Assembly: GCA_963578725.1 (NCBI GenBank)
Contig: CAUZDS010000010.1
Coordinates: forward strand, 15,686 to 79,685
DNA length: 64,000 bases
Reading direction: 5' to 3'
From: Vicinamibacteria bacterium
GTDB lineage: Bacteria; Acidobacteriota; Vicinamibacteria; Vicinamibacterales; UBA8438
Part shown: one piece after another, positions 12,256-45,189 of the stretch
Numbering within the stretch: the stretch's first letter is position 1
Layout: each line of letters starts with the position of its first letter
Translations under genes and position numbers: made by a program
Notes under the pieces: model-generated
What the model saw: the letters and a program-made list of their open reading frames with translations, nothing else
Databases searched by the model: none
Told to the model about the DNA's origin: nothing

Positions 12256-12265
12256 GGGTTCGCTG

Positions 12266-23665: not shown

Positions 23666-23698
23666 ACAACCGGCTACATCGTACCATCGAACCCGCGG

Positions 23699-26277: not shown

Positions 26278-27432
26278 TTGGCCTATCGCGTGCCGTTCGT
26301 CGACCCGAAGGAGCACTATCGACGCCTGAAAACCGAGATCGACGAATGCATCTCATCGACGCTCGCGAACGGCGACCTCGTCCTGCGGCAGCAGCTGCGT
26401 GACTTCGAGCGTGACTTGGCGCAGTTCGTTGGCGTCAAGTACGCAGTCGGCGTCGGCAGCGGATACCACGCGCTGCATCTCTCACTGCTCGCGGCGGGCG
26501 TCGGGCCTGGCGATGAGGTGATTTCGGTTGCGCACACCTTTGTCGCCACGGTGTCGGCCATCGTTCACACCGGCGCCACACCCGTGCTCGTAGACGTGCG
26601 GCCAGACTACAACATGGATCCGGCGGCGTTCGAGGCAGCCATCACCGAGCGCACGAAAGCGGTTATTCCGGTGCATCTCAACGGCCGCGTTTGCGACATG
26701 GATCGCATCGCCGCCATTGCTTCTCGGCACCGGCTTTCGATCGTGGAAGATGCCGCACAGGCGCTCGGTGCGACATTCGAAGGCCGTGGAGCCGGATCCT
26801 TCGGTCTAACCGGCTGTTTCAGTTTCTACCCGTTCAAGACGCTCGGCGGCCTGGGGGACGGCGGTGCTGTCACCACGAACGATGCCAACGTCGCGCGTAT
26901 GGTCACTCTGCTTCGCTACAACGGCGAGGACCGCGAGAGTGGCGTGTACCATCATCACGGCTACACCGCGCTGCTCGATAACGTGCAGGCGGCCGTGCTC
27001 GACGTCAAGCTCCGCCACCTTCCCGACTGGATCCGCCACCGTCGCGAGACGGCCGCGCGCTACACAACCGGCCTCGATGGGATCGTCGATCTCCGGCTGC
27101 CCGTTTTCGATGACCCGCGCCACCTCGACGCCTACCAGAACTACGTCATCCGGACGCCGGCACGCGACGCCCTACGCCAGCATCTGCGGAGCGCCGGTGT
27201 CGAGACGCTCGTTCACTGGGCGAGACCGCTGTGGGGCCATCCAGGTCTGGATCTCGCGGAGCCGGCCGCTCCCGAAAGCCTCGACATCTGCCGCGAGGTT
27301 ATATCGCTGCCGATGAGCGCCGAAACGACATCGGAGCACGTCGACATCACCACGGCGGCGATCCAGGGCTTCTTCGAGCAGCACCAGCGGCAGACAGTCA
27401 TGTCAAGCGACCAATCGCGTACAGCACCTTGA
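26278..27432 (+). CDS. DegT/DnrJ/EryC1/StrS-family sugar aminotransferase
   Basis: 384 aa, TTG start. FERDLAQFVG..YAVGVGSGYHALHL and the PLP-lysine context SFYPFKTLGGLGDGG. Confidence 0.9.
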   Translation: MAYRVPFVDPKEHYRRLKTEIDECISSTLANGDLVLRQQLRDFERDLAQFVGVKYAVGVGSGYHALHLSLLAAGVGPGDEVISVAHTFVATVSAIVHTGATPVLVDVRPDYNMDPAAFEAAITERTKAVIPVHLNGRVCDMDRIAAIASRHRLSIVEDAAQALGATFEGRGAGSFGLTGCFSFYPFKTLGGLGDGGAVTTNDANVARMVTLLRYNGEDRESGVYHHHGYTALLDNVQAAVLDVKLRHLPDWIRHRRETAARYTTGLDGIVDLRLPVFDDPRHLDAYQNYVIRTPARDALRQHLRSAGVETLVHWARPLWGHPGLDLAEPAAPESLDICREVISLPMSAETTSEHVDITTAAIQGFFEQHQRQTVMSSDQSRTAP

Positions 27433-28213
27433 AGTCGGTGACCACCGTTCGACCGTCGAGCGGTACCAACGGCGCCGGCGGTCCGAGGTCCGAGCCCACC
27501 GCCGTCGGGAGCGGCTCGAGCGGTCCATAGAAGGCGCGCTTGAGCCACTCCTTGCCCCGCATTGTCTTTGGAACGAGGTGCAGCCTGGCCGCGACGCGGC
27601 GGAGGAGGGCCACGACCGTCGACTGCGAGGAGTGGGGCCGAACCGGAAAAGCACCAAGCAGCCGGACCTCGAACCGGGCCCCCTCGAGGAGCCGCACGAT
27701 ATCCTGCGCGGCGAAGTAGCGGGTGCTGAAGGGACTGGGCATGAAACCGTCCCACTCGCAGTTGACCGAGCAGATGAAGAGGACCCCGTCGTTCCGGAGC
27801 ACGCGGCGCGCTTCGGCGGCGAACGCCGCCGCGTTCGGCACATAGTACAGCGCCTCGCATAACACGACGACATCGAAACTGCGATCTCTGAATGGCAACA
27901 CCTGCGCGTCCAGCCGAACGCGACAGGGACCGGTACCGTCGACGTCGCCCGCCTGGCGCAGCAGACTCTCCGTGTAGTCGCCACCAACGGCCCGTCGCGT
28001 CTTCGTGACGAGGTACCGCAGGCCGATCCCAGCGCCGCAGGCCACCTCCAACACGTCTTTGCCGGCCGACAGTTCCGCGGCCAGCTCATAGCGCGTGCGG
28101 AGCATCGACCGCTGTTCAGTCGTGGCACGCGCCGCCGATCGCTCGGTGACGGTCGAAAAGTCTTCGGTGAGCGGCCTTGCGGGCGCCACAGGTTGGTGGT
28201 CGAGATCGGGCAT
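27398..28213 (-). CDS. Class I SAM-dependent methyltransferase
   Basis: 271 aa. Motif I VLEVACGAGIG, followed by FDVVVLCEALYYV. Confidence 0.85.
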   Translation of the reverse strand: MPDLDHQPVAPARPLTEDFSTVTERSAARATTEQRSMLRTRYELAAELSAGKDVLEVACGAGIGLRYLVTKTRRAVGGDYTESLLRQAGDVDGTGPCRVRLDAQVLPFRDRSFDVVVLCEALYYVPNAAAFAAEARRVLRNDGVLFICSVNCEWDGFMPSPFSTRYFAAQDIVRLLEGARFEVRLLGAFPVRPHSSQSTVVALLRRVAARLHLVPKTMRGKEWLKRAFYGPLEPLPTAVGSDLGPPAPLVPLDGRTVVTDFKVLYAIGRLT

Positions 28214-28225
28214 GCCGGCGGAGGG

Positions 28226-29161
28226 TCAGATCGCCGGCGCCGTCACGGCGCCGGCGATCGAACCAACGAGCGCATCTACCGAGAGACCATGGCGCTCGCG
28301 AAGATATGCCTGCGTGCCTACCCGTGAGTCGAACGCCGATGGAATTCCGATGCGCATCAGTCGCGCGCGCGGGGCGTCCTGCTCAGCCAATACCTCGGCC
28401 ACGGCGCCACCGAGACCGCCGATGACGCTGTGCTCCTCGATGGTCACGACCATGGCGGTTTGCCGCGCCGCCGTGACGACGGCGTCCGTATCCAGGGGCT
28501 TCAGGGTGTGCATGCTGAAGACGGTGGCCTCGAGCCGGTGCTGGCGCGACAGCTCCTCCGCCGCTGCCATCGTATTGGCGAGCAGGCCACCGGTCGTAAT
28601 GAGCGTCAGATCACCGCCCTCGCGAACACGAATCGCTTGCCCGATTCTGAAGTCGATGGGGCCCGTGTGCACCTGCGGCTCTCCGGCCTTGCCAAGCCGC
28701 ACGTAGCAAGGACCGGAGCGGGCGATGACCGCGGGTACCGCGCGCGCGGCTTCGGTCGGATCGCCGGGCGCGATGACGGTCATACCAGGCAGAGACCGCA
28801 TGATCGCGAGATCTTCGGTGGCGTGGTGGGACACGCCCAGCGCGCCGTAAGCGAACCCGCCCCCGACCGCCGTAATCTTGACGTCTGCTCCGTGATAGCA
28901 GATGTCGTTACGCACCTGCTCGAGACAGCGGAAAGTTGGGAAGTTCGCGATCGAGTACGTGAAGACGATCTGACCGCTGAGTGCCAGGCCCGCCGCGACG
29001 CCGGCCATGTTTTGCTCTGCCACCCCGACGTTCAAGAACTGATTCGGAAAACGAGCGGCGAACTGATCCACGACCGAGTAGCCGAGATCACCGACCACAA
29101 GGGTGACCCGCGAGTCGGCCTCGGCCGCCTGGAACAGCGCGTCCATGAAGCCGGTCCTCAT
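28226..29161 (-). CDS. Transketolase, C-terminal (pyrimidine-binding) subunit
   Basis: 311 aa. FLNVGVAEQNMAGVAAGLALSG and the C-terminal domain of split transketolases. The start overlaps the upstream stop by 4 nt. Confidence 0.9.
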   Translation of the reverse strand: MRTGFMDALFQAAEADSRVTLVVGDLGYSVVDQFAARFPNQFLNVGVAEQNMAGVAAGLALSGQIVFTYSIANFPTFRCLEQVRNDICYHGADVKITAVGGGFAYGALGVSHHATEDLAIMRSLPGMTVIAPGDPTEAARAVPAVIARSGPCYVRLGKAGEPQVHTGPIDFRIGQAIRVREGGDLTLITTGGLLANTMAAAEELSRQHRLEATVFSMHTLKPLDTDAVVTAARQTAMVVTIEEHSVIGGLGGAVAEVLAEQDAPRARLMRIGIPSAFDSRVGTQAYLRERHGLSVDALVGSIAGAVTAPAI

Positions 29162-29994
29162 GCCGATGTCAACTCTTCGAGGGCCAGCGCCAGCTCGTCG
29201 TCTTCCGGTGGCCTATAGTGCCAAGCCAACCGGTTTTCCATGAAACTCACGCCTTTACCCTTCACGGTGTGCGCGATAAGGCACGTGGGACGGTGAGCCT
29301 GGAGCGGCAACGTGTCCATTGCCGCATCGATCTTCGCGAGGTCGTGGCCGTCAATCTCGCGAACCGCCCAGCCGAAGGCGCGCCACTTGTCGGCTAGCGG
29401 ATCGAGATTCAACACGTCTTCGACCCGTCCGAGACTTTGGATCTTGTTGTAGTCGACGATCGCGACGAGGTTGTCGAGGCGATGATGGGGTGCGAACAGT
29501 ACCGCCTCCCACGTTGACCCCTCGTCGCATTCGCCGTCACTGAGCACGGTGAAGACGCGATAGTCGGCGCCCGCGCGGCGGCCGGCCAGGGCCATCCCGC
29601 AGGCGATCGACAGACCGTGGCCCAACGAACCGGTCGACACGTCAATGCCCGGGGTGCCGGCGGTCGCATGACCGGCCAGCAGGGTCCCGTTCTGATAGAA
29701 CGTGTCGAGCCACTCGACCGGAAAGTACCCGCGCTCGGCCAACGCCGCGTAGAGCGCCACGCACGCATGTCCCTTGCTGAGGACCATCCTGTCGCGACCT
29801 TCCCACGCCGGGCGGGTGGGGTCGACCCTGAGGCGGCCGCCGTAGAGCACCGCGAGCAGGTCGGCGATGGACAAGGCACTGCCGATGTGTGAGCTCCGGG
29901 CGCGGTGCACCATCTGCACCGAGCGCATCCGAATCGTCCGCGCAAGATCACGATATCGCTGGTGCTGGGAACGCTCGGCTTCCACGATGGGCAT
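29158..29994 (-). CDS. Transketolase, N-terminal (ThDP-binding) subunit
   Basis: 278 aa. SHIGSALSIADLL, STGSLGHGLS and the ThDP motif LSDGECDEGSTWEA. Confidence 0.9.
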   Translation of the reverse strand: MPIVEAERSQHQRYRDLARTIRMRSVQMVHRARSSHIGSALSIADLLAVLYGGRLRVDPTRPAWEGRDRMVLSKGHACVALYAALAERGYFPVEWLDTFYQNGTLLAGHATAGTPGIDVSTGSLGHGLSIACGMALAGRRAGADYRVFTVLSDGECDEGSTWEAVLFAPHHRLDNLVAIVDYNKIQSLGRVEDVLNLDPLADKWRAFGWAVREIDGHDLAKIDAAMDTLPLQAHRPTCLIAHTVKGKGVSFMENRLAWHYRPPEDDELALALEELTSA

Positions 29995-30729
29995 CTACTC
30001 GATGCGCGCGAACCCGACGTACGGATCCCACGGGAAGCGCTTGATCTCCAACCGATTCAGCCCTATCGCCTCCACCGTCGCCAGCGTCTCCCCCGGCCAG
30101 ATCGGATTGTCGAGCTCGTCGAACGCGATCACCGCGCCCTTCGGCATCCGCGGCACCAAGTGCTCGAGCGCCGTCCGCGTGGGCTCGTACAGATCCAAGT
30201 CGAGGAAGAGCAGGCTCACAACGAGGTGACCATGTTCAGCCAGGAACGCCGGGATGGTCTTGGTTACGTCGCCCTTGACGAGGTGCACCTTATCGATGTG
30301 CCCCAGAAACCGGTCCGAATCGTAGACTCGGATGAGCTCCTGCAGCTCGTCGTATGCGTCGGCCCGAAGCCCTCCCTCGTGGGGTGACTGCCGCGGGTTA
30401 CGGTCCTTGTCCGCCACGCCGGGAAAGCCCTCGAAGCTGTCGAAGCCGTAGATCCGGCGCGTCAGGTTCGCGGGCTCCAGCACGGCGCTCAAGTGTGCCC
30501 AGGTCATCAGGCTGAAGCCACGGAATACCCCGCACTCGACGATCGACCCCTTGACGTCCAGGACGCTCTTGAACAGCTCGTAGAGGGTGATGAAACGTGT
30601 GATCGTCTTGCGCCGCGCGTAGCGCGGAAAAGTCTCGAGCCGCGTGTCGACGCTGTCACGGCTCGTCTCGAAGATACGCTCGAGCTCGGCCCCGACGCCC
30701 TCCTCGGCTGCGGTGCGCAGAGCCTTCAT
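29995..30729 (-). CDS. TylF/MycF-family (macrocin-type) O-methyltransferase
   Basis: 244 aa. IVECGVFRGFSLM and YGFDSFEGFP motifs characteristic of TylF-like sugar O-methyltransferases. Confidence 0.85.
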   Translation of the reverse strand: MKALRTAAEEGVGAELERIFETSRDSVDTRLETFPRYARRKTITRFITLYELFKSVLDVKGSIVECGVFRGFSLMTWAHLSAVLEPANLTRRIYGFDSFEGFPGVADKDRNPRQSPHEGGLRADAYDELQELIRVYDSDRFLGHIDKVHLVKGDVTKTIPAFLAEHGHLVVSLLFLDLDLYEPTRTALEHLVPRMPKGAVIAFDELDNPIWPGETLATVEAIGLNRLEIKRFPWDPYVGFARIE

Positions 30730-31692: not shown

Positions 31693-32775
31693 TCAGGTCG
31701 CCCGTGCTTGACCGGCGCCGGCCAGGACTTCGAGTATCGTGTCCGCGCCGACGGCTGCACTCTTGCCCACGTTGAAGACCACTTCGTCGCGCAAACGCGC
31801 GAGCCCTGCGGGCTCCGCGGTCTTCAGTGAAAGCAGTTCCCTCGCGACGCTCGGGGTGTCGACGGCCGCCTGCGGCTCGAGCACGCGACCGAGGCGCTCG
31901 CGTATGCCGACTTCCACCGGCTCCAAACCGAGGGCCGCGTACGGCGGGTTGCGGACCTTTCGCGGCGTGTCGATGAACAGTACCGGCCGGCCCGTGCTCA
32001 GTCCGAACTCCAAGGCCGCCCCTGACCAGTCGCTGACGAGCAGGCCGGCCTCGCAAAACGATCGATCGGCGTGCGCGGCCGTATCGAGCTCGAAGCGCGA
32101 CACGCCGTCGAACGCCGCCAGGATGGCCAAGAGCGCCGGAGACGCCATTCGCCATTGCATAGGATGGGGGCGGAGTCGCACCCGATATCCCCCGTCGAGC
32201 AACGCCTTGATTACCGCCTGACCATTGTGTTCGATGAGGGAGCTCGCTCCCCACGACGGGGCGACGAGGATAACCGGGTCGGTCGCGCTGGGCCTGACGT
32301 CTTGAGTGGCAAGCAGCAGCGCGTCAAGACGTGTCGAACCGTGATCGACCAGATGCTTTGCTCGGACACCGTATCGGTTTTCGCGCGCCCTGATCTCGCG
32401 GCTGTGATGCGGCCCCACGCACAAGACGGTATCGTAGGCGTCGAACGAGTCGGCGCGGTAGATCATGTGCGTGCTGTTGATGGCGTGGAATACGTAGACG
32501 TAGTGCACCGGGTGTATCGACCGCTTGAGGTGGAACACCCCGAGGTCGGGCATCGTCATGACGACAAGGTCGGCGTCGAGCGCTCGGAACAGGATCGTTC
32601 GCGCGTGGCCCTCACCGATGTGGAAGGCGGACACGAGAGCAGATTCCAACTGGAATATGGGGTCGTCCGCTGCGGTGGCCAGGACGCTCACGGGCTGCCC
32701 GTGTGTGTCGACCAACCGACGCAGGATGCCGGACAGGTGCGGCCAGTCAGCGGCGCTCTCGACATAGAACACCAC
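31693..32775 (-). CDS. TagF-like CDP-alcohol phosphotransferase family protein (putative phospho-substituent transferase)
   Basis: ILVAPSWG (cf. YAPTWR), RLRPHP and LLVSDWSGAALEFGLSTGRPVLFID (cf. LITDYSS..FDF...KP.IF) resemble the CDP-glycerol glycerophosphotransferase family. Start set at GTG 32775, downstream of the preceding gene's stop. The listed ORF start 32967 overlaps that gene. Confidence 0.6.
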   Translation of the reverse strand: MVFYVESAADWPHLSGILRRLVDTHGQPVSVLATAADDPIFQLESALVSAFHIGEGHARTILFRALDADLVVMTMPDLGVFHLKRSIHPVHYVYVFHAINSTHMIYRADSFDAYDTVLCVGPHHSREIRARENRYGVRAKHLVDHGSTRLDALLLATQDVRPSATDPVILVAPSWGASSLIEHNGQAVIKALLDGGYRVRLRPHPMQWRMASPALLAILAAFDGVSRFELDTAAHADRSFCEAGLLVSDWSGAALEFGLSTGRPVLFIDTPRKVRNPPYAALGLEPVEVGIRERLGRVLEPQAAVDTPSVARELLSLKTAEPAGLARLRDEVVFNVGKSAAVGADTILEVLAGAGQARAT

Positions 32776-32839
32776 GCGCCGGCGTTCGCGAGGCTGGCGG
32801 GCAAAGCGCCAGGCCGCGGCCAAAGGGTGAGGCCTGCGT

Positions 32840-33622
32840 TCAGTCGAGCACGCAGAACCGGTCAAGGGTGTCCTCGCGCGCGAGACGAGCGTAGAGCTCG
32901 AGGTCAGCCACCGTGTCGACTTCGAGCCAGCCTCCCGCTTGCGAAACGGCGTGGACGCGCAGGCCATGCTCGATGAGCAACTGGAGCAAGTCGGTCATAT
33001 GCAGCTGATCGCGCCCACGGCCCCTGAACACCGTGGCGCGATCGAGACTGTCGTAGAGCTTCAGCACTCGAGGCATTGCCGCGGCGGCGATGCGGAACAG
33101 GCCGATGTATTGCGCATCGATCTGATCGTAACTGTCGGCTACGGCCCCGACCTCCCGGATGAGACCGTCCGGGCCGAGGCGCAGCGTTTCCGCGTCTGTC
33201 AGGGGATTCGCCATCCGAGCCTCCCAGTACGTCCGCCACGCCGAGTCGACAACCACGGCCACGTCACCGACCGAATCCGCCAGCCTCCGAGCCACCCTCG
33301 GCTCGAACACGACGTCGCCATACGTCACGATCACGTCGTCGGTCGATTCGAGCCACGACCGTGCGGCCATGAGGCTGGTGACCATGTTCGTGGTTTCGTA
33401 GTCGGGATTCTCGAACACCCGACATCCCTGCGCGGCTGCGCGCACCTGGCTGGCACGATACCCCGCCACGACCGCGATGTCGCGCACGCCGATGGTCCGC
33501 AGCGTACTCAGCTGTCGGTCGAGCAGCGAGCGGCCGTTCAGGGGAATCAGGCACTTCGGCCGCACGGCGGTATGCGGCATCAATCTGGTACCCTGACCGG
33601 CCGCGAGAATCACCGCCTTCAT
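32840..33622 (-). CDS. LicC-like nucleotidyltransferase (putative cytidylyltransferase, Cj1416-like role)
   Basis: MKAVILAAGQGTRLMPHT..PKCLIPL (G-x-G-T-R-L NTP-transferase signature). About 260 aa. ATG 33622 overlaps the upstream stop (ATGA). Confidence 0.85.
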   Translation of the reverse strand: MKAVILAAGQGTRLMPHTAVRPKCLIPLNGRSLLDRQLSTLRTIGVRDIAVVAGYRASQVRAAAQGCRVFENPDYETTNMVTSLMAARSWLESTDDVIVTYGDVVFEPRVARRLADSVGDVAVVVDSAWRTYWEARMANPLTDAETLRLGPDGLIREVGAVADSYDQIDAQYIGLFRIAAAAMPRVLKLYDSLDRATVFRGRGRDQLHMTDLLQLLIEHGLRVHAVSQAGGWLEVDTVADLELYARLAREDTLDRFCVLD

Positions 33623-34260
33623 CGGTCTCCCCGGAGCCACGCGACCAGCGCGCGGGCCGTCGCTTCAGGCACCCCCACCCGCTCGGGGTGCCACATGACC
33701 CCGAGGAAGGGCTGCTCGCGATGGACGAACGCCTCGACCGAGGCCCCGCCGTCTGCGAGCGCCAAGGGGCGCAGGCCATCCGCCAGGTCGTCCGAGGGAA
33801 TGACCCACCGGTGAAAGCTATTGACGTCGAATCGCTCGGGCCAGTCCGCTGGCGCCGGTCCAACGACGTGCACCCGATGGGGACGCGCGACGTGCCGATC
33901 GTCCTGGACAAGGCGTCCCCCGGCGAGCGCGTGGAGTACCTGCGCCCCCCGACAGATGCCCAGCACCGGTGCCCCCCGTCCCGCAGCGATGTCCACGAGT
34001 TGGGCCTCGAGGCGATCACGTTCCGGCGCAGTTCCTTCGGTCGTCGACGCGAGGCCAGTGTCGTTACCACCGCTCAGCACGAGGCCATCGATCCCCAGAT
34101 CGTCAAAGAAGATGGATGGCGCGGCCAACACGTTTGGCACCGGTATCGGGAGACAGTCGCCTTCGATCAACAAGCGGGCGAGAGCCTGATCAAGGCAGTC
34201 CCATCGCTCACACCGACTGTCCGGCACGAACACACGGGTGGTCACCGCGATGCGTCTCAC
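33619..34260 (-). CDS. Peptidase C26 / class-I glutamine-amidotransferase-like gamma-glutamyl amidohydrolase (Cj1417-like role)
   Basis: 213 aa. Nucleophile elbow GICRGAQVL and the His-Glu pair in GVMWHPER. The start overlaps the upstream stop by 4 nt. Confidence 0.85.
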   Translation of the reverse strand: MRRIAVTTRVFVPDSRCERWDCLDQALARLLIEGDCLPIPVPNVLAAPSIFFDDLGIDGLVLSGGNDTGLASTTEGTAPERDRLEAQLVDIAAGRGAPVLGICRGAQVLHALAGGRLVQDDRHVARPHRVHVVGPAPADWPERFDVNSFHRWVIPSDDLADGLRPLALADGGASVEAFVHREQPFLGVMWHPERVGVPEATARALVAWLRGDR

Positions 34261-37200
34261 AGGAGCCGCTCGAGCCGCTGACTCTCGGAGTCGACGAGAA
34301 CTGTCTTGGCGGGTTGGAGTTGGTCGCGGAGGACCGGCCCGATTCCAATCGCGGCAGGCAGCCCCAACTCCGCCGCACGCACTGCCATGTGGGAATTGGC
34401 CCCGCCGAAGACCGTGACCAAGCCGGCGATGCCCTCGGTGAAGAGCCAGTCGTAGCCGGGATCAGCCTGCGGCACCATGACGACGGCCCCGCGCAACGCC
34501 TGCTCGGGTCGTGTGACGTGCTCGAGCACTACAAGGGGACCGATTGCCCGACTGCGGCCGACGAAATTCGGCCGCCCCCGCGACAGGCGAAACCCCCACA
34601 GGTCTCGCGACTCGAAGATGAGGGGCGGGAGCTCCACAGCCTGCACGACCGCATACCAGTCACGACCGTCCTCGACCCAGCCATGGAGATGTGTCGAGCT
34701 TGCATTACCGACCAGGAGCGCCTCGAAGTGTCTCCAGTCCAGGTATGACAGGTCGTCACGGGACAGACCGGCGGTTGAGCCAAGCTCCACGAGAGCATCG
34801 AGGGCCAGGCTCAGGTTGCGCGTGAAACGAAACTTCGCGAGCTCCCGACCTTCGATCGATTCCCGACAAAAGCGCTCGAAACGTGTGACGTCGTCGTCCA
34901 GTCCCAGGGCGCGCAGGCTGTTCGCGAGACGCGAGGCCGCACCCGGAGGCCACGCAAAGTCCGACGGACCGGGCGCCAGCGTCTCCTCTCCGGCCGGCGT
35001 GACGTCCATCTCGGCATAGGTCGGCGCCGTGATTTCATAGGTGCCGGGCCGCAGGTGTCCGTAGTCCGCCAAGAAGTCGTCGCGCGCCAGCGTCCGTGCC
35101 GACACGCGCCCGGCATCCCGAACGAACCGGTTCGTCACCGTACACAACGATCGCATGAAGGCGGACAGCGTCTGCTCGTCGATGATGTCCTCGCTGACGG
35201 CGCTGCGGAGCAGCGACGTGGCGATGAATGCGCGCCGGGCCAGATGAGCGAACGGCAACGTGCCAAATCGTGCGCAGTCATCGAGCAACGCGGCGGCGCG
35301 ATGGAGTGGCCGCCGGCCGCGGTTCAGGATCGCAGCCCGCCGCTGCTCCAAGATCTCGATCGATCTCAGATACACATCGGAGTCCGTCATCCCGCTCCGC
35401 GTAATGTCCGCCAGTGCCGCCCGTAGTGGGCCCAGACCCTCGGCGGGATACCCGTCAGCACACAGCGCGCCGAACCGCCGCTCGAGATCGAGGGTCAGAC
35501 ATGTCAGCGCGACATCGAACTCGATCTTGTCGTGGAGCTCCGGTTCCCGACGCAGCTTCGTCAGATAGGCGTCGACCAGTTGGCCGGCCAGGGGCTCCGC
35601 GAGGGCGGCCGGCACGAACGAGTTGAAGCTGGCGCGAACGTCGACATACGGATGGCCGGCGAGACTGACCACCAGCCGCGCCGGTCGGAGGTCCCGATAC
35701 CCGGACTGCGCCCGTTGCTTCGCCCACACATCATCCGTCACGAGGCGCCGATAGAGGCTGAAGGCCAACGGCCGCGGGCGCTCACCGATGATCTCGGCCG
35801 GATTCCAATCCGGCATGATGCCCCAGGCGGCGGTTCGGCCGACCTGAAACGGCGGCGGGGTCGCGGCGTCCTCGAGGAAGGTCGCGGTCGCTTCGAGCGT
35901 CGCCTGCACTCGCGCGTCACTCGCGGTCCAGGCGCTGTAGTCCGTCGCGATCGGCCGGAGTTGCAGGACCACGACCCTTCCGGCCTCATCCACGGCGAAC
36001 TCGACATCGAGCGCATCGTGGCCGACGAGCCCCTCGAGCTCCGCGAGCGCCGGCAGCACGCGTGACACGATCCCCGAGTCGCCGGTGCTCCGTGTCCCGG
36101 CTTCGTCGCTGAGCACCCGCCGATGCACGAAGATGGTCTCGATGTGCTCACCGCGCCCGGAGGTCACTCCGTTCGTCGAGCTGGTGTTTTCCTCGTAGCT
36201 GAGCACGTAGTACGGGCCACCCCGCCGGATCGTTCTGGTCATGGCGACGCCGGTGGCCATCGGATCCTGCAGCAGCGGTTGGACGAGCACTTGATCCTCG
36301 CCCTCGGCTTCGCCGTACGACGCGATGACACGCCCGACCGCCGCTTTCACTTGTGCGCGGTCGTCAGCCGAGACGTCGGCGACCGAGAGGAACCGACCCG
36401 CCTGGGACGCCACCCACCGGTCTTCGCGCTTCGTGCTGCTCCGGACGATGACCTGCCGCCCCGCGAAGCGCGACCCGATCCGGTCAAGCATCGCGGCCGA
36501 ACTCTGGCGCCATTCGCGGACCGTGCACGCGACCGACTCCAGCACGTGGCAGCGCTGAACAATGGGAGCGAGCCGATCCAGCGTATCGGCCTTTGATCCG
36601 AGTATGAACCGGGCAACCTCTTGCGGTGTGTCAAAGCTTGCCCACTCGCCTGCCGAGTCGAGCCCCCTGACTGGCACACCCCGCTCCACGAGTGTCGCGA
36701 TCAGCTTTGGCAGATTCCAGGACCGCCAGGCCTGTCGTGCCGTCTCGGGGATGGCAAGCAGCACGGCAACGGCCTCGGGCGACAGCTTCAGCAGCCCAAC
36801 GTACTGCGCGTCCGCCGTCTCCGGCGCCACGTCGGTACCAATCGCCGTGATCCGCGGCGGAGCGCCGCTCCGGGATGGAGCCAGACGGACCAACTCCAAG
36901 CTCTTCCGCCGTGAACCCCTGCGTTGCCACTGGCGGTCAACCGCCGCCACGGCCACGGCGTCCGCGCGCATCATCTGCTCAACGAGCGTCGCGGACACCA
37001 TCACGTCTCCGTAGATCACGTAGTAGGTCCGCGACGGTTCCAACGGCACGATCAAGAGAGATCCCGCGCTCCCGGTCGTCGCCCACTCCGGATTCATCGA
37101 GTAGCGCAAGTCAGGGTACCGACTCACGATCTCCTCGAACCGGTATCCTCCTACAAAGTGCACTTCCGGCTGCTGGGCCGCGAACGCGTGCAGGCACCAC

Positions 37201-37313
37201 TGGAGCGCGGCCACGCGTCCCGCTCCCTCGCTGAGCGCCGCTGGAGTCTGACCGCGAAAAGGCCTGCCGGCACCGAGTATCACGAGCGACGGTCGGGACG
37301 GGACGGTCGCCAT
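34257..37313 (-). CDS. Fusion protein: degenerate LicC-like nucleotidyltransferase domain + PPDK_N-type ATP-grasp + PEP-utilizer phosphohistidine swivel domain (putative glutamine-kinase-like enzyme, Cj1418-like role)
   Basis: The N-terminal ~250 aa (LVILGAGRPFRG...YVIYGDVMV...AQYVGLLKL) parallels the neighbouring LicC-like protein. The central region resembles the PEP/pyruvate-binding ATP-grasp. The C-terminus carries GLVTVFGGANSHMAVRAAELGLPAAIGIG with the phospho-carrier His. Start placed at ATG 37313 (TGATG overlap with the upstream ORF). The TTG 37427 extension has lower GC3 than the competing frame. Confidence 0.85.
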   Translation of the reverse strand: MATVPSRPSLVILGAGRPFRGQTPAALSEGAGRVAALQWCLHAFAAQQPEVHFVGGYRFEEIVSRYPDLRYSMNPEWATTGSAGSLLIVPLEPSRTYYVIYGDVMVSATLVEQMMRADAVAVAAVDRQWQRRGSRRKSLELVRLAPSRSGAPPRITAIGTDVAPETADAQYVGLLKLSPEAVAVLLAIPETARQAWRSWNLPKLIATLVERGVPVRGLDSAGEWASFDTPQEVARFILGSKADTLDRLAPIVQRCHVLESVACTVREWRQSSAAMLDRIGSRFAGRQVIVRSSTKREDRWVASQAGRFLSVADVSADDRAQVKAAVGRVIASYGEAEGEDQVLVQPLLQDPMATGVAMTRTIRRGGPYYVLSYEENTSSTNGVTSGRGEHIETIFVHRRVLSDEAGTRSTGDSGIVSRVLPALAELEGLVGHDALDVEFAVDEAGRVVVLQLRPIATDYSAWTASDARVQATLEATATFLEDAATPPPFQVGRTAAWGIMPDWNPAEIIGERPRPLAFSLYRRLVTDDVWAKQRAQSGYRDLRPARLVVSLAGHPYVDVRASFNSFVPAALAEPLAGQLVDAYLTKLRREPELHDKIEFDVALTCLTLDLERRFGALCADGYPAEGLGPLRAALADITRSGMTDSDVYLRSIEILEQRRAAILNRGRRPLHRAAALLDDCARFGTLPFAHLARRAFIATSLLRSAVSEDIIDEQTLSAFMRSLCTVTNRFVRDAGRVSARTLARDDFLADYGHLRPGTYEITAPTYAEMDVTPAGEETLAPGPSDFAWPPGAASRLANSLRALGLDDDVTRFERFCRESIEGRELAKFRFTRNLSLALDALVELGSTAGLSRDDLSYLDWRHFEALLVGNASSTHLHGWVEDGRDWYAVVQAVELPPLIFESRDLWGFRLSRGRPNFVGRSRAIGPLVVLEHVTRPEQALRGAVVMVPQADPGYDWLFTEGIAGLVTVFGGANSHMAVRAAELGLPAAIGIGPVLRDQLQPAKTVLVDSESQRLERLL

Positions 37314-37753
37314 CACGGCGCTCGCGATTCCGACTCGGGAAAGAGTCGGTGCACGACAGCCGCCCGGAGCCGACTGGCCATGAGGTGATATGCGTCTGGC
37401 CGCCCCGGATCCTGCGGAACGGCCCAACCAGGCACCGCCACGACCTTGCGATCATTCACATCCACCTGCGGTGGCGGCCGGCTGATCGTGGCGCGCGTAC
37501 CAACCCCTGTCGCGCGACGGAGAGCCTCCTCGTGAGGCGCCGACGAGCCTGCAGGTCCTTCCGGGTTACGCTGTGGCCAGTGCTCCGCCAGGCGGCTGAC
37601 GAGCGCCGTGGTCGATACCAGGCTGTCTGCGGTGCGCGCGACCGGTCGGTCGGCAACCCACGAGCGGAGCGTACGCGCGAGGGTGGCGGCCAGACCCCCC
37701 GCGTCACCGTGCGGAACGGAGCCCGGAGCAAATTCGGACGCTCCACCCGTCAC
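37313..37753 (-). CDS. Hypothetical protein (~146 aa), translationally coupled on both sides
   Basis: GTG 37753 overlaps the sulfatase-like stop (GTGA). Its TGA overlaps the kinase ATG (TGATG). Hand-counted GC3 is 21/30 in its last 30 codons versus 22/38 for the competing N-terminal extension of the kinase. No motif recognised. The sequence is Ala/Arg/Pro-rich, so it could still be spurious. Confidence 0.4.
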   Translation of the reverse strand: MTGGASEFAPGSVPHGDAGGLAATLARTLRSWVADRPVARTADSLVSTTALVSRLAEHWPQRNPEGPAGSSAPHEEALRRATGVGTRATISRPPPQVDVNDRKVVAVPGWAVPQDPGRPDAYHLMASRLRAAVVHRLFPESESRAP

Positions 37754-39636
37754 CGGTCGTCCACCACCGGGAGATCCGTCACGAACGTCCACCCGTCGGA
37801 GGTGAGACGGTACTTCGAGAGTTTCTTCCCGGGGAAGCCCTCTGCGCCGGTGTAGCGTCCGTGTGTGAAGAAGACGTTCTCCCGCTCCTGGCCATCGCGT
37901 AGATCCTCGACGGGTAGACCGGGCAGGTCGTCGGTGGGGAGGTCGAAATGCCTCAGTATGGTTGGCGCGATGTCGATCATCTGCACCGGCACGTCACGAT
38001 CGCGGCCACCCACGGCGTGCGGCGGCTTGACCAGCAGTAGCCCGGATGAAGACACCTCGACAGCGATACTGCGCCATTGGGCGCTGTCTCCGTAACGGAG
38101 CTCCTCCCAATTCGCGTCATTCAGATACCAGTGATCGACCGGTTGATACGTTTCTGCGGTGGGATCGAGGGCGAACGAGAGGTCGAGGCCAGGAATCGTC
38201 TCTCTGAGCAACGCGTGGTCACCGTGATCCGCCTGCACGATGATGAGCGCGTCGGCGTAGTGACCGACCTCTTTCAATCGGTTCGTCAGCATCGTGATCA
38301 TCTTCATGGCGCATGTGGCAAACGCCATGTACCTCCCGGCATTCGGGTCGACTGAGAAGATCTCTTCTCTCAGCGACGTGGCAGCGGGCACCGCCTCGGG
38401 TTCTTCGAACCGACAATCTTCATCGAGTGAATACGGCCCATGCGGGATCATCCCATGATAGAAGACGTACTGGCCGTTTGCCGGCCGGCGACGCTCTTCC
38501 GCCAGCAACTGGTTGAACTGCGCAAAACCGAACACCTGGTTGACCACCAGGCGACGCACCCGCTCTAGCAGCGCCCCGGCGCGCAGCGTGATGCCCTGAC
38601 CCCACAGCGCCGTGATCGAAAACCCGGTTGTCTCTTCGGTTCCGACGAACGGCTGGCCGGTAGTGAGCGCCGGGCCATTGAGGATGCGCCGGACCGAGTT
38701 GGGCACGATGCTCAAGAACCACAGGTCGATCACCGTCGCTGACAAAATGGTGTCCGTCGTGACCGCGGGATGGACCGCCGATAGACAGTCGTACGCCTTC
38801 TCGAGACAGAAGTACGGGGCATACGGATAGAGCGAGAGCGTCGCCCCGGCGCTGGCCAACCGATCCCAGAAGCCTTCGGCCGGCGCCGCATAGTGCCATT
38901 CACGGAACGACCCGTTCGGCTCCAAAAAGCGCCCGCGGAGCATCGCCGGCAGGGCCGTTGCCGTTTGCGAGTAGTTCGTATTGAATCGCCGATAGTAGTC
39001 GAATTCGAACTCGAGATCGGGCAACCGGTCGCGCAAGTGCTCGAAGGTTTCGCTTTGAAACGCATCCAGAACGAGGTGATAGACATTCCCCTGGGGCAGG
39101 GAGCTCGCGGGGGGACGATAGACGCGTGGCGTCTGCTGTTTCACAAGGCTCGGCGGAAGATGCCGGACGAAGCTGTAATGACCAACCACCCCGTGGCTGA
39201 CAATCAGAATCGCGGTGACCGCCCCGACGGTCGCCAGGTGGGCGAACCGGACGCGCGCCAGACCGAACCCGAGCGCCGTCAGCACGACCACCTCGATCGG
39301 GATCGCCAGAGCGACCGGGACCGTGGGGTTGTCGAGCCACGGGCGCACCGCATCGAAGACCAGCACCGTCAACGCGGCGAGAATCGCACACCGGGACAGC
39401 ACCCTGGCCGCACGAGACCGGTCTGCCGACAGAAACACCGTGGCGAGCAGCACCCAGCTCCCGAGGAAGGCGGTGAAGAACGCCGCGGTCAGATTCCAGT
39501 GATAAAGCAGATCCGCACTATTACGAAAGACGACGTTGTTGAAGGCGGCAACGAACACGACCGCGGGCGCCACGGCCGCGGCAGCGACACGGGTCGTGGC
39601 CCAGACGATCAGTGGTCGAACTGAAGTCGTTGACAT
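37750..39636 (-). CDS. Membrane-anchored sulfatase-like (alkaline-phosphatase superfamily) hydrolase/transferase, LtaS/EptA/OpgB-type architecture
   Basis: 628 aa. About 5 N-terminal TM segments followed by a soluble domain with NVYHLVLDAFQS, YHGMIPHGPY and IIVQADHGDH, typical of sulfatase-fold phosphotransferases. Confidence 0.8.
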   Translation of the reverse strand: MSTTSVRPLIVWATTRVAAAAVAPAVVFVAAFNNVVFRNSADLLYHWNLTAAFFTAFLGSWVLLATVFLSADRSRAARVLSRCAILAALTVLVFDAVRPWLDNPTVPVALAIPIEVVVLTALGFGLARVRFAHLATVGAVTAILIVSHGVVGHYSFVRHLPPSLVKQQTPRVYRPPASSLPQGNVYHLVLDAFQSETFEHLRDRLPDLEFEFDYYRRFNTNYSQTATALPAMLRGRFLEPNGSFREWHYAAPAEGFWDRLASAGATLSLYPYAPYFCLEKAYDCLSAVHPAVTTDTILSATVIDLWFLSIVPNSVRRILNGPALTTGQPFVGTEETTGFSITALWGQGITLRAGALLERVRRLVVNQVFGFAQFNQLLAEERRRPANGQYVFYHGMIPHGPYSLDEDCRFEEPEAVPAATSLREEIFSVDPNAGRYMAFATCAMKMITMLTNRLKEVGHYADALIIVQADHGDHALLRETIPGLDLSFALDPTAETYQPVDHWYLNDANWEELRYGDSAQWRSIAVEVSSSGLLLVKPPHAVGGRDRDVPVQMIDIAPTILRHFDLPTDDLPGLPVEDLRDGQERENVFFTHGRYTGAEGFPGKKLSKYRLTSDGWTFVTDLPVVDDR

Positions 39637-39941: not shown

Positions 39942-40739
39942 CTACCCTTCGGCTTTTCGGGGGCGTGCCAGGACGAACACTGCCATCCACGCTTGCCACC
40001 GCAGCCACGGAATCCGCAGCAGCACGCGATCCACCGCTTCGAGCGTCGCGCGGATGACGGGAAACACGCGTGTACGCCTGAAGACCACGGCGGCGATGGT
40101 CGCCAGATGAAAGAACCGAGCCACTTCCACGCGGTCGAAGAAACGCCGTGCTTGATCGATGTCGGGCTTTCCCAGAATGTGCCCGATCTCCCATGCCGAC
40201 CGCAGACGGGGCGTCAACCGGCGGTACGTGTGAATCAGCAGGTTGTGGCGCAAGGCCTCCGTACAGATGATCTCACCTTCCGGTTTGAGTACCCGCGAGA
40301 GCTCCCGGTACGCCCTGGGTAAATCGAGATGATGCAGGACCCCATTGACTACGATGACATCGAACATGTCGTCGGCGAACGTCGTGTTCTCAGCATCCAT
40401 GACCTCGAATGTTGTCTGCTTGTCGACGCCGGCGGCGCGTGCCGCGCGCCTGGCGTTCTCGATCGACACTGGTGAGATGTCGATGCCCCAGGCCTGACCT
40501 CCAGCGGTCGCGCAGAACTGCGCCATCTGGCCGTCGCCGCAGCAGTAGTCGAGGACGGTCGCGCCGGAACAACGGTGTCGTAGCCAGCGCTCTACGAACG
40601 CGATGTTGCTCCCGGCGATGGCGTAGAACTTCTTGTTGCTCGTGTAGAGCTCATTATGTTTGAGCTCACCGCGAAGCGCGTCATGCAGTTCGCGCTCTCG
40701 CTCCAACCTGTCGCTTGCCTGTGGCGCACGTTGCTCCAT
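39942..40739 (-). CDS. Class I SAM-dependent methyltransferase
   Basis: 265 aa. Motif I VLDYCCGDGQ, then FDVIVVNGVLHHL and LKPEGEII. Confidence 0.85.
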   Translation of the reverse strand: MEQRAPQASDRLERERELHDALRGELKHNELYTSNKKFYAIAGSNIAFVERWLRHRCSGATVLDYCCGDGQMAQFCATAGGQAWGIDISPVSIENARRAARAAGVDKQTTFEVMDAENTTFADDMFDVIVVNGVLHHLDLPRAYRELSRVLKPEGEIICTEALRHNLLIHTYRRLTPRLRSAWEIGHILGKPDIDQARRFFDRVEVARFFHLATIAAVVFRRTRVFPVIRATLEAVDRVLLRIPWLRWQAWMAVFVLARPRKAEG

Positions 40740-40758: not shown

Positions 40759-41823
40759 TTATTTACCTTCTGTCGAGGCGGTCCTTGCGCGTGTGCTCCC
40801 TGCTGGGCGTAGGAATCGAGAACGGATAACGCCACTGATCACCCCCCACAGGCTGCCGAGTCCGTACGCGACATGCAGGCTTGTAAACATCACTGGCATC
40901 ACGAGCAGATACCGGAGGTCCCTCCGCTGCACCGCGACGTCGGCGGACGCCAGCAGGCTTAGCACGCCGTAGGCACCCAGGATGGCCACGAGCCCCCACC
41001 ACGCCACCGGAAGGAAGCTGCCGAGAACCGCCATCGCGCACACGGCGACAACGAACGCCAACGGTACCAGGTGCCGCCACGAGACGGGCATGATCGGGCT
41101 GTTAAAAAATGGCAGTATCGCCCACACGCCATTCCCCCAATTGTGGCGGCAGAACGAACCATACTCCGCCCGGGCGTAATAGTAGCTGACGATGTCCGGT
41201 ACGAGGAGCGTGCGGCCGCCAGCCTTCTTAAGGCGCAGGTTGAATTCCATGTCCTGGCCGCGCGCCAGGGCCTCGTTGAACAGACCGACCCGAGCGAACA
41301 CATCGCGTCGGTAACAGCCGCCAAACACCGTATCCACCCAGCGTGGCTCAGTCGAGTGCACCCGGAAATGCGAGTTCCCCACCCCGAATCGGTGGGACAG
41401 GCTGCTGACGATGGCCCAGCCCAACAGACTCTTCTGTCGCGGAAGCGTGTGCATGTTGCCGCCGACATTGTCAGCGCCATACGTCTGAAGGGCTTCGACC
41501 GACCGCGATACGTACCGAGCGTCGATGAGCGCGTGAGCATCCATGCGCAGGATCATGCTGCCCTGGGCGACGGTGATAGCGGTATTCAGCGCGGCGGGCG
41601 TTATCCCTTTTGGATTGTCGAGCAGCTTGATGCGCGCGTCCCGGGCCGCATAGTCACGGATGATCGCGCCGGTGCCATCCGCGCTGCGGCCGTCCACTAC
41701 CAGGATCTCGAGGCGCTCGCTCGGATAGTCGCTCGCCAGTACGGAGTCCAGACACGCACCGATGAACGGCGCTTCGTTGCGGCACGGGATCACTACCGAG
41801 ACGAACGGGACTGTCGATGTCAT
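40759..41823 (-). CDS. Family 2 glycosyltransferase with C-terminal TM segments
   Basis: VSVVIPCRNEAPFIGACLDSVLASDYP, and MDAHA (DxH/DxD position). C-terminal hydrophobic helices. Confidence 0.9.
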   Translation of the reverse strand: MTSTVPFVSVVIPCRNEAPFIGACLDSVLASDYPSERLEILVVDGRSADGTGAIIRDYAARDARIKLLDNPKGITPAALNTAITVAQGSMILRMDAHALIDARYVSRSVEALQTYGADNVGGNMHTLPRQKSLLGWAIVSSLSHRFGVGNSHFRVHSTEPRWVDTVFGGCYRRDVFARVGLFNEALARGQDMEFNLRLKKAGGRTLLVPDIVSYYYARAEYGSFCRHNWGNGVWAILPFFNSPIMPVSWRHLVPLAFVVAVCAMAVLGSFLPVAWWGLVAILGAYGVLSLLASADVAVQRRDLRYLLVMPVMFTSLHVAYGLGSLWGVISGVIRSRFLRPAGSTRARTASTEGK

Positions 41824-43184
41824 GACATCTCAGACCGTGGTAGACGGTCTTCGGACCAGGAGTGGACGACATCGCGAGCGGTGAAGTAATCGGGGCGGAT
41901 GCCGGGACGCACGAGTTGCCAGAGGTTGGCGCGCGCCGCAGCGCCACGAATGAGACTGCCAATAGCGCGCCGTCGATGAACGCCATTGAATATCTTCAGC
42001 AATCCCATCAGCGACCGCCGCCCTGGCTGACCGCGCTTCGCCAGCCGCGCGAGGTGAGCCGCGGTCCGCTGGACGCCGTCCAGTCCAGACTCAGCGTGGC
42101 CCGCCAGGGCGGCGACCGGCGAGACCGGGTCCGTTGTCCGGTGCGTCACTGCCGCTAGCAAGCCCTCGAAGGTTTGCACACGGGGCAGTTCTTCGAGCCA
42201 GTCGACTCGAAGGAACCATGGATACGGTTCTGGCTCCAGAAGAAACGCCGGCTTTCCAACGGCGTTACCATCGAGCGCGAGCGAGCTGAAGTTGGTGAAG
42301 CACGCTTCGCTGGCTGCGAGCCACTCGTGGGCATTTCCGGCCTTGCAGATGTGTACACAGTCTGGAACTTGTCCCACGAGCTCGCGGAAGCGGTCCTCAT
42401 ATTGGTGAATCGCGATCGCGGGATGCGGTCGCAGCACGATGACGAAGTCGCGGGCGTCGGGCGCATCGTTGAGACTCGCCAGCCAGCGGAAGATCTGATT
42501 GATCGTCCGGCGTACATACGCCGCATGTTCCAGCACTGTCGACTCTTCCGAACCGACGCCGATGCGGCTCCGAACGTGGTACTCACCGAAGAACCCCATG
42601 TGGCACGTCATGGGGAAGAACAACCAGCGCTTGTCGAGGGGTAGCCCAGTCGTGTCGGCGAGGTAGCGCCGAATCGAGGCTACATCGCCGTCGACTTTTC
42701 GCCGAAGCAACGCCAGCGACGGTTTACCGGTGAGCTCGATGTGCGTTGGCTCAACGCCGCAGGAGACCAAGAAGTTACGATAGTCAGCGCCCCAGCTGAC
42801 GTGATGCACGCGGGTCTTCGTGAGATGGTCCCGCGGCGGCCGGAAGCTCTTGTTGATCGGACTCAACACTTGCTCCCAGTTCATGCACGCGTATGTTATC
42901 GAGCGTCCGTAGACGGAGTTGAAGATCGCGTGGATGAACTCGGGGCCGTGCGACTCCGACTTCGACGGGGCTATTCCGGTGGATACCACGACCCGCGGCC
43001 GAATGAAGGCTGCGCTGACTACCGGACTATAGAGCGTCGAAGCGACGGCAACGGATAACCGGTACCGCTCGCGCAATACCCGAGTGACGGCCGCGATGAC
43101 CTCGAGCTCGCGATCGCGATGTTCCACGAAGAACATCACGTCGACGACGCTGCCGTCCCTATACATGGTCGATCGCCGTGTCAC
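41820..43184 (-). CDS. Uncharacterised polysaccharide-locus protein (454 aa), possibly a GT-B/capsule-type transferase
   Basis: Long ORF with the operon's codon bias. 4-nt overlap with the GT2 start. No catalytic motif I can name. The N-terminus (VDVMFFVEHRDRELEV...) vaguely recalls 'surface carbohydrate biosynthesis' proteins. Confidence 0.65.
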   Translation of the reverse strand: MTRRSTMYRDGSVVDVMFFVEHRDRELEVIAAVTRVLRERYRLSVAVASTLYSPVVSAAFIRPRVVVSTGIAPSKSESHGPEFIHAIFNSVYGRSITYACMNWEQVLSPINKSFRPPRDHLTKTRVHHVSWGADYRNFLVSCGVEPTHIELTGKPSLALLRRKVDGDVASIRRYLADTTGLPLDKRWLFFPMTCHMGFFGEYHVRSRIGVGSEESTVLEHAAYVRRTINQIFRWLASLNDAPDARDFVIVLRPHPAIAIHQYEDRFRELVGQVPDCVHICKAGNAHEWLAASEACFTNFSSLALDGNAVGKPAFLLEPEPYPWFLRVDWLEELPRVQTFEGLLAAVTHRTTDPVSPVAALAGHAESGLDGVQRTAAHLARLAKRGQPGRRSLMGLLKIFNGVHRRRAIGSLIRGAAARANLWQLVRPGIRPDYFTARDVVHSWSEDRLPRSEMS

Positions 43185-45122: not shown

Positions 45123-45189
45123 TCGCGACGGCGGTGCCTGGCGACCGACTCTGGCCGAGTGTCACTAGCCGGGTCAGGCAGCAACCGAC

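Follow-up and report, generated by a model that had tools for sequence, protein, structure and literature searches.

Glycan P–N bonds are treated in the literature as close to a Campylobacter curiosity, the reference case being the O-methyl phosphoramidate (MeOPN) of the Campylobacter jejuni capsule, whose synthesis involves the L-glutamine kinase Cj1418, the cytidylyltransferase Cj1416, the amidohydrolase Cj1417 and the further kinase Cj1415, together with the putative methyltransferases Cj1419/Cj1420 and the MeOPN transferases Cj1421/Cj1422. Unmethylated phosphoramide substituents are known on Xanthomonas campestris lipooligosaccharide (LOS) and Shewanella MR-4 lipopolysaccharide (LPS), and a four-gene cluster of a Borg, an extrachromosomal element of Methanoperedens, has been proposed for MeOPN synthesis (bioRxiv 10.1101/2024.11.05.622173). 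A precedent for the final transfer comes from the Clostridioides difficile Type A flagellin glycan, where FtaD (CD0244), a TagF-like CDP-N-methylthreonine:GlcNAc phosphotransferase with no classical cytidine diphosphate (CDP)-alcohol phosphotransferase motif, places its phospho-group onto a sugar hydroxyl after glycosylation (bioRxiv 10.64898/2026.02.12.704994). The subject of this report is a four-gene operon at 31693–37313 of a 64 kb stretch of the genome of a Vicinamibacteria bacterium (contig CAUZDS010000010.1; hereafter the window), encoding a kinase, a hydrolase, a nucleotidyltransferase (NTase) and a TagF-like protein (ORF4); from its sequence, and with somewhat more confidence than doubt, it is read as a phosphoramidate activation and transfer module within a Wzx/Wzy-type polysaccharide locus.

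The module resembles the C. jejuni MeOPN system in three orthologue-level protein matches, in the catalytic motifs kept and in its surface-polysaccharide setting. It differs in that the window holds no Cj1415-type 3'-kinase and no orthologue of the methyltransferases of a second locus architecture (type B, below), in that a degenerate NTase domain is fused to the kinase, and in that the transferase would be a small TagF-like protein of its own clade; an alkaline-phosphatase (AP)-family membrane protein is also present, and the locus is of the Wzx/Wzy type, in contrast to the Kps (ABC-transporter) capsule locus of C. jejuni. The Borg proposal, made independently from structure prediction, likewise concerns Cj1418/1417/1416-like genes outside Campylobacter, although by its description that cluster belongs to an archaeal host and has one NTase joined to a phosphoenolpyruvate (PEP) mutase domain, and neither a TagF-like transferase nor a fusion of such an N-terminal domain with the kinase is described.

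Counterparts of Cj1418, Cj1417 and Cj1416

An earlier annotation of this DNA made without database searches (the sequence-only reading) had proposed four overlapping, co-directional genes, and four minus-strand open reading frames (ORFs) do span the interval (Table 1). Overlap is found between the kinase and hydrolase genes (4 bp, GTGA) and between the hydrolase and NTase genes (4 bp, ATGA); the NTase–ORF4 junction is either a 16-nt gap or a 26-nt overlap, according to which of two TTG starts is used. The module genes are translationally coupled, and the order kinase, hydrolase, NTase is the gene order cj1418-cj1417-cj1416. All motifs quoted in the sequence-only reading are present, namely GGANSHMAVRAAELG in the kinase, holding His975 (codon at 34389–34391); GICRGAQ with Cys103 and WHPE with His191 and Glu193 in the hydrolase; and GQGTRL at residues 9–14 of the NTase, where Lys23 is also found. 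Its family calls of PEP-utilizer kinase, peptidase-C26/class-I glutamine amidotransferase (GATase) and nucleotidyltransferase are likewise backed by Pfam matches far above chance: PEP-utilizers (PF00391, E = 5.6e-12) and PPDK_N (PF01326) for the kinase; Peptidase_C26 (PF07722, E = 2e-22) and also PF00117 for the hydrolase; and NTP_transf_3 (E = 8e-24) and NTP_transferase for the NTase. The kinase protein is 100% identical to database entry P0001; an upstream TTG would lengthen it by 38 aa.

The C. jejuni reference proteins came from a metagenomic contig (L083), found by using a cj1416 mutagenesis primer (PMC3907429) as an exact DNA pattern. This contig encodes the end of Cj1418, then Cj1417, Cj1416, Cj1415 and KpsC; its three complete proteins are exact matches to C. 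jejuni database clusters, with the cluster names CTP:phosphoglutamine cytidylyltransferase, gamma-glutamyl-CDP-amidate hydrolase and cytidine diphosphoramidate kinase, and judged by these sequences the locus is authentic C. jejuni DNA. With the 144-aa C-terminus of C. jejuni Cj1418 as query, only short fragments were returned, and a Helicobacteraceae-seeded kinase search (3024 relatives) had no Campylobacter entry among the 120 matches listed. BLASTP against the reference set gave reciprocal best matches in the window, with the phospho-His and the catalytic triad aligned, and the first three genes emerge as family-for-family counterparts of Cj1418, Cj1417 and Cj1416 at 40% (C-terminus), 30% and 37% identity, respectively.

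The kinase core, comprising an ATP-grasp domain, a central domain and a phospho-His swivel domain, is a candidate Cj1418-type L-glutamine kinase by homology. It scores 814 bits against the NF004508/PRK05849 equivalog (NCBIfam; cut-off 501), in an alignment of residues 270–1055 of a 1056-aa ORF with model positions 5–788 of 789; we take this equivalog to be the Cj1418 model, an assumption with which both the C-terminal identity and the names given by the Joint Genome Institute (JGI), where many kinase homologues are called 'glutamine kinase', agree. PEP synthase, PPDK, rifampicin phosphotransferase and PigC were rejected as identities, each reaching at most 33 bits over the swivel domain only, and with 814 against at most 33 bits the kinase does not group with PEP synthase, PPDK or rifampicin phosphotransferase. 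The last 144 residues of Cj1418, the part covered by the comparison, are the reciprocal best match of the window kinase; the phospho-His motif GGANSHMA(V/I)RA (GGANSHMA-RA) is identical between the two proteins, and its histidine is conserved without exception across 26 homologues. Assuming a Cj1418 length of 779 aa, this residue is at position 737, presumably the catalytic His737 of Cj1418.

Missing from the earlier description was an extra N-terminal domain of approximately 236 aa in the kinase, which is NTase-like and appears as a degenerate paralogue of Cj1416 (20% identity over 241 aa, E = 8e-13, BLASTP). Its AlphaFold model (pLDDT 92, pTM 0.91) has the NTase fold in Foldseek searches (TM about 0.7), the top matches being inositol-1-phosphate cytidylyltransferase, GlmU, PntC, MurU and LicC, with GMPPA/GMPPB structures also among the matches. 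Aligned with active Cj1416-type enzymes, the domain carries a 5-residue deletion in the Gly-rich loop (LGAGR-----PFRG) and has lost both the arginine register of GxGxR and the lysine of the PK signature. Sequence and model together suggest that it is probably non-catalytic, with a regulatory or scaffolding role; by analogy, its most likely function is to bind a cytidine nucleotide or to hold the active NTase in place. Pseudo-enzymes of this kind have precedents in GMPPA and GalF: like the members of the GMPPA/GMPPB and GalF/GalU pairs, the kinase N-terminal domain keeps a full NTase fold with an altered catalytic loop and lysine, and an active paralogue is encoded two genes downstream; those precedents are separate subunits, in contrast to the degenerate domain of the window, which is part of the kinase polypeptide.

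The hydrolase, a candidate Cj1417-type gamma-glutamyl-CDP-amidate hydrolase on sequence grounds, shares 30% identity with C. jejuni Cj1417 (E = 1e-25, BLASTP), and Cys103 and His191-x-Glu193 align with LGICRGAQ and WHIER of that protein, leaving the triad intact. Of the NCBIfam families, NF045546 (gamma-glutamyl-CDP-amidate hydrolase) fits it best, at 90 bits versus 38 for PuuD. The trio of kinase, hydrolase and NTase is complete in 74 of the 80 loci closest to the query, which come from many phyla, the exceptions being mostly truncated contigs; a PuuD-type hydrolase without conserved synteny is thus not what the data describe. The NTase, predicted to be a Cj1416-type CTP:phosphoglutamine cytidylyltransferase, aligns with Cj1416 at 37% identity over 250 of 253 aa (E = 2e-69, BLASTP) and is its reciprocal best match in the window, two other NTase-like window sequences scoring far lower. 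Both proteins carry the insert VVDxxWRxxW...NPLxDAETL, and the GxGTRL and PK signatures are conserved. For Cj1416 itself, no specific NCBIfam model was present among its top 25 matches.

ORF4 and two locus architectures

The fourth protein had been called TagF-like, a likeness that is upheld by its homologues and by the family profile but not by the single sequence. Of 31 close ORF4 homologues, 30 match PF04464 (Glyphos_transf; best E 1.5e-16), and the family profile matches TarL (8va1, 2e-5), TagF (3l7i, 6e-5) and Cps3D across the catalytic Rossmann region at the C-terminus of these enzymes. The relationship is very remote (E = 2e-5 by profile, no match by single sequence). In contrast to these enzymes, ORF4, a protein of 376 aa, has no N-terminal domains of the membrane-targeting or polymerase-associated kind, and it probably adds a single group instead of building a polymer. 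Invariant residues of the ORF4 clade, which numbers 542 representative clusters at E <= 1e-30, are His113 and Arg218-Pro219-His220. The last of these (RPH) aligns with the histidine of the TagF LRMH motif, which we take to be His584, the pyrophosphate-binding catalytic residue; with His444 and His584 presumed to be the catalytic histidines of TagF, His113, although outside the aligned region, may be the counterpart of the catalytic base or second histidine. Taken together, ORF4 is a candidate phosphoramidate transferase of GT-B type, related to PF04464 and forming a distinct clade. A single-sequence structure model (pLDDT 37) was discarded. The CGPTase of C. jejuni NCTC12662, considered as a MeOPN transferase for comparison, was also set aside, being a different gene in a source that says nothing of the Cj1421 fold (PMC8949473).

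Synteny of all four genes is less general than that of the trio, with ORF4 homologues in 35/80 loci, in most high-scoring cases directly downstream of the NTase gene. Within the ORF4 clade, P0444 carries a fused Formyl_trans_N-like domain and P0552 a fused YidC/60KD_IMP-like membrane domain; formyltransferase-like and YidC-like domains (clusters c2 and c12; examples L024:16020-16946 and L029:15629-16807) are also encoded by genes of their own next to ORF4, the former in 31 loci and the latter in 10, and neither is found in the window.

In agreement with the sequence-only reading, which had seen no Cj1415 equivalent, tblastn with five adenylylsulfate (APS)-kinase domains and C. jejuni Cj1415 gave no significant match in the 64 kb. 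Cj1415-type loci (type B) make up 22 of the 80, and the window belongs to the other architecture (type A). In type B loci (for example L064, L071, L077, L078, L082; proteins P0086-P0120), a Cj1415-like domain (43% identity) either precedes the kinase as an N-terminal fusion or has its own gene nearby; the kinase core (about 40% identity), hydrolase and NTase are the same as in the window, whereas the ORF4-clade transferase is absent, and one or two class-I methyltransferases often lie between kinase and hydrolase. Type B looks like the full Campylobacter-type gene set; the presence of the Cj1415-like domain in these sister clusters ties the whole family to the Campylobacter pathway, and the two types probably share it up to cytidine diphosphoramidate. 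ORF4-clade genes (35 loci) and Cj1415-type kinases (22 loci) do not coincide in any of the 80 loci (Fisher p = 2.7e-7), a Cj1415-type kinase lying within 10 kb in 0/35 ORF4-clade loci as against 22/45 others. The fused N-terminal kinase domain is found in every ORF4 locus.

A similar partition is seen for methyltransferases. Family c11 is encoded in 12 Cj1415-type loci, for the most part between the kinase and hydrolase genes, and is absent from the ORF4 loci; no c11 orthologue is present in the window, where similarity is generic only (about 35 bits). The suggestion that nearby class-I methyltransferases could play the Cj1419/1420 role is therefore unsupported, as these are not orthologues of the c11 family, and a phosphoramide without a methyl group is a likelier product than O-methyl phosphoramidate. 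Cj1415-type clusters carry one or two tandem class-I methyltransferases of about 255 aa, usually between kinase and hydrolase (L056, L059, L062, L064, L066, L068, L070-L072, L074, L076, L077, L080); these mirror cj1419/cj1420 and are candidates for the O-methylation enzymes of MeOPN. A sub-variant comprising L003, L005, L006, L008, L036, L038 and L048 has a more divergent ORF4 (about 130–150 bits) accompanied by an AsnB-type asparagine synthase, in 6/7 loci by a UDP-glucose/GDP-mannose dehydrogenase, and in most also by a DegT aminotransferase and a hexapeptide acyltransferase; these partners may form a conserved sugar acceptor pathway.

A predicted pathway and its alternatives

In the pathway favoured here, glutamine would be N-phosphorylated by the kinase with ATP, as equivalog-level homology to Cj1418 indicates; the NTase would join L-glutamine phosphate and CTP to yield CDP-L-glutamine, in line with its end-to-end identity to Cj1416; and the Cys-His-Glu hydrolase, by its homology to Cj1417, would strip glutamate to leave cytidine diphosphoramidate. 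These three steps are considered likely. For the fourth, gene content, co-occurrence and the FtaD precedent suggest that ORF4 could move the phosphoramidate from its CDP donor to a sugar hydroxyl, with release of cytidine monophosphate and without the 3'-phosphorylation of cytidine diphosphoramidate that is performed by Cj1415 in C. jejuni; by analogy such direct transfer is plausible, and is put forward tentatively. The membrane AP-family protein may handle the phospho-group outside the cytoplasm. Likened by description, the FtaABCD system shares its logic with the pathway proposed here, in that a non-sugar phospho-donor is linked to CDP by an NTase and its phospho-group is passed to a sugar hydroxyl by a TagF-like enzyme; it differs in that the donor is a P–O phospho-amino acid ester rather than a P–N compound, in that the acceptor is a glycoprotein, and in being without a PEP-utilizer kinase and an amidohydrolase.

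Several observations weigh against this interpretation. The assignments rest on homology at 30–40% identity, for Cj1418 over the last 144 residues only, and ORF4 alone has no Pfam, NCBIfam or PDB sequence match. The hydrolase falls below the NF045546 cut-off, at 90 versus 250 bits; Cj1417 itself scores 328, and homologues from full Cj1415-type clusters are also under the cut-off at 106–122 bits (122 for a Helicobacteraceae homologue, 106 for one from an APS-kinase-fused cluster), the cut-off being Campylobacter-narrow. The locus statistics come from a sample selected by similarity to the query, which is biased and phylogenetically non-independent. Outside the visible 64 kb, the genome could hold a gene for a Cj1415-like or generic APS kinase. 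Finally, at least 10 further loci were shown by profile searches to have a more distantly related PF04464 protein adjacent to the module, and a Cj1415-type kinase is present in three of these (L041, L044, L056), such that a TagF-like transferase alone is no evidence that 3'-phosphorylation is dispensable; with these finds, the mutual exclusion of ORF4 and Cj1415 was dropped as proof of a 3'-phosphorylation bypass, and the claim of exclusivity is kept for the ORF4 clade.

Those three loci, together with the presence of several class-I methyltransferases within 10 kb and a view restricted to 64 kb of genome, also speak for a canonical route, in which a Cj1415-like or CysC-type kinase from outside the window performs the 3'-phosphorylation and a neighbouring class-I methyltransferase completes true MeOPN. 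This is judged unlikely, given the lack of a Cj1415-type kinase within 10 kb in all 35 ORF4-clade loci against its presence in 22 of the 45 others, and the merely generic similarity (about 35 bits) of the type B methyltransferase family to window proteins; in a sugar-rich locus, the window methyltransferases are equally likely to act as sugar O- or N-methyltransferases. The missing 3'-kinase can also be cited for a transfer of intact N-phospho-glutamine from CDP-L-glutamine by ORF4, with the hydrolase acting later or tuning the donor pool, and a final decoration of phosphoglutamine or a mixture: FtaD shows that TagF-like enzymes take CDP-amino-acid donors, and CDP-L-glutamine is, per the literature, the immediate product of the NTase step. 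By analogy with FtaD this could occur, yet it is quite improbable, since the hydrolase is encoded in nearly every locus, translationally coupled between kinase and NTase, keeps an intact triad, and has as its closest characterised relative an enzyme that acts on free CDP-L-glutamine.

In a third alternative, of unrelated chemistry, the kinase would act on some other substrate and the NTase and ORF4 would add CDP-activated phosphoglycerol, ribitol or choline, as in teichoic-acid-like decoration, a scheme for which the membership of ORF4 in the TagF family, the generic sugar-phosphate and LicC-like matches of the NTase, and the JGI name 'choline kinase' for some kinase homologues can be cited. 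An amidotransferase-type hydrolase has no role in phospho-alcohol activation, yet one is present in 74/80 loci; the Cj1418-family model gives the kinase core 814 bits, and the PEP synthase, PPDK and rifampicin phosphotransferase models no more than 33, the NTase bears the Cj1416-specific insert at 37% identity, and sister clusters carry Cj1415-like kinases, all of which make this explanation very improbable.

Locus surroundings, distribution and significance

Directly upstream of the kinase lies a multi-pass membrane protein whose own PF00884 match is weak, 9 of 11 homologues matching this family; searches of PDB and NCBIfam sequences returned nothing useful for it. Its invariant residues (N184, D191, T225, H399 and H471-G472) fit a threonine nucleophile with metal ligands. 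EptA/LtaS-type phosphotransferases, unlike sulfatases, typically use threonine as the nucleophile, and the motifs fit an EptA/LtaS-like enzyme. Homologues are found in 13 ORF4-type loci, in most of which they adjoin the kinase or ORF4, and the protein is a probable accessory of the module. Between its gene and the kinase ATG is a 436-nt gap (37314–37749), in which one gene caller places a 146-aa ORF and which could be a promoter or hold a small gene; in several related loci the two genes adjoin directly.

The module is embedded, as its neighbours' sequence families indicate, in a Wzx/Wzy-type polysaccharide locus with genes for Wzx, Wzy_C, a small Bac_transf initiating transferase, family 2 glycosyltransferases (GT2), DegT aminotransferases, a hexapeptide acyltransferase, split transketolase-like pairs, a thiamine pyrophosphate (TPP) enzyme, a B12-radical S-adenosylmethionine (SAM) protein, an HldE-like kinase/cytidylyltransferase and methyltransferases (Table 1). 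A sugar-pathway block on the minus strand (52999–63731), which also includes a zinc-dependent alcohol dehydrogenase (Zn-ADH), a NUDIX protein and a short-chain dehydrogenase/reductase (SDR), suggests, when taken with the split transketolase, that the glycan made here contains branched sugars or sugars with longer carbon chains. Five ORFs without a Pfam match (E <= 0.001) may be novel glycosyltransferases or polymerases. G+C content dips to 0.59 at 22001–24000, versus about 0.65 elsewhere, overlapping a 565-aa ORF (22004–23698) with no Pfam match that may have been horizontally acquired at the edge of the glycan locus. An Rfam scan of the window found no RNA family. Taken by themselves, the UPF0182 protein, the ClpC-type ATPase and the G+C content of about 65% would suggest a host in Actinomycetota; the assembly record places it in Acidobacteriota.

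Table 1. Features of the module and of the surrounding window (positions are those of the window)
Feature	Position	Strand	Remarks
Kinase gene	34257..37313	minus	ATG start, 1018 aa
Kinase N-terminal domain (aa 1-236)	36606..37313	minus	NTase-like, degenerate Cj1416 paralogue
Kinase core (aa 237-1018)	34257..36605	minus	ATP-grasp, central domain, phospho-His swivel domain
Hydrolase (C26/GATase) gene	33619..34260	minus	213 aa
NTase gene	32840..33622/33640	minus	260/266 aa by start choice
ORF4 (TagF-like) gene	31693..32823/32865	minus	376/390 aa by TTG start choice
Multi-pass membrane protein	37750..39636	minus	628 aa; C-terminal alkaline-phosphatase/sulfatase-superfamily domain
Class-I methyltransferases	39942-40739, 27401-28225, 47599-48528		
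TylF-type methyltransferase	29995-30729		Class I
Split transketolase	28226-29994		
ORFs without Pfam match	41823-43223, 43836-45161, 45193-46119, 48464-49285, 49407-50468	minus	274-467 aa
B12-binding radical SAM protein	52999-55047	minus	
NTP transferase	55005-55910	minus	
HldE-like PfkB kinase/cytidylyltransferase fusion	55772-57262	minus	
TPP enzyme	59106-60920	minus	
Transketolase C-half	62637-63731	minus	
UPF0182 family protein	17065-19956	minus	939 bits
ClpC-type ATPase	9880-12486	minus	

Beyond the window, a scan of one genome per species identified relatives of the kinase in at least 588 genomes of many phyla, with carriers including Legionella septentrionalis, Marinobacter, Halomonas, Pseudomonas brenneri, Rheinheimera, Bosea and Butyrivibrio, as well as Acidimicrobiia, Solirubrobacterales, Planctomycetota, Cyanobacteria, candidate phyla radiation (CPR) bacteria and Haloferax elongans; two queries returned 152 and 3024 clusters at 90% identity. 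Many type A loci are from metagenome-assembled genomes of Acidimicrobiia and Solirubrobacterales. Among cultured strains, the gene set of the window is carried by Pseudomonas brenneri DSM 15294 (L063, with membrane AP-family gene, kinase, hydrolase, NTase and ORF4), Rhodoferax sp. TH121 (L005) and Bosea sp. UC22_33 (L036), and complete genomes with an ORF4-type cluster include OY776568.1, OZ271919.1 and NZ_CP170556.1. The rarity outside Campylobacter implied by the sequence-only reading was thus overstated, the more so as 'glutamine kinase' names already exist at JGI, and the window module is one ordinary member of a widespread family. With the Borg proposal, gene presence outside Campylobacter is not new; the literature searched contained no paper establishing phosphoramidate chemistry outside that genus, and the type A architecture appears undescribed in it.

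A wider reading, which is speculative and held with more doubt than confidence, is that type A represents a widespread branch of the pathway that bypasses PAPS-like (3'-phosphoadenylylsulfate-like) 3'-phosphorylation, in which a TagF-like clade would use cytidine diphosphoramidate directly and the pseudo-cytidylyltransferase domain would couple or regulate the enzymes; accessory proteins, namely the AP-family enzyme or the YidC-like or formyltransferase-like domain, would process the group further in a subset of loci, and unmethylated phosphoramide would decorate envelope polymers of Actinomycetota, Proteobacteria, Planctomycetota and others.

The kinase is thus present in species-level genomes by the hundreds, and the pathway genes are arranged in at least two architectures; if the proposed chemistry is correct, decoration of the cell envelope with phosphoramidate would be common among environmental bacteria. 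The one step of the pathway still to be solved, namely which enzyme transfers the group and from which donor, would be open to testing in cultured hosts that are easy to work with. The module could then be the missing route for the orphan phosphoramides of X. campestris LOS and Shewanella MR-4 LPS, and would supply candidate genes for these substituents on the lipopolysaccharides of plant-pathogenic and marine bacteria.

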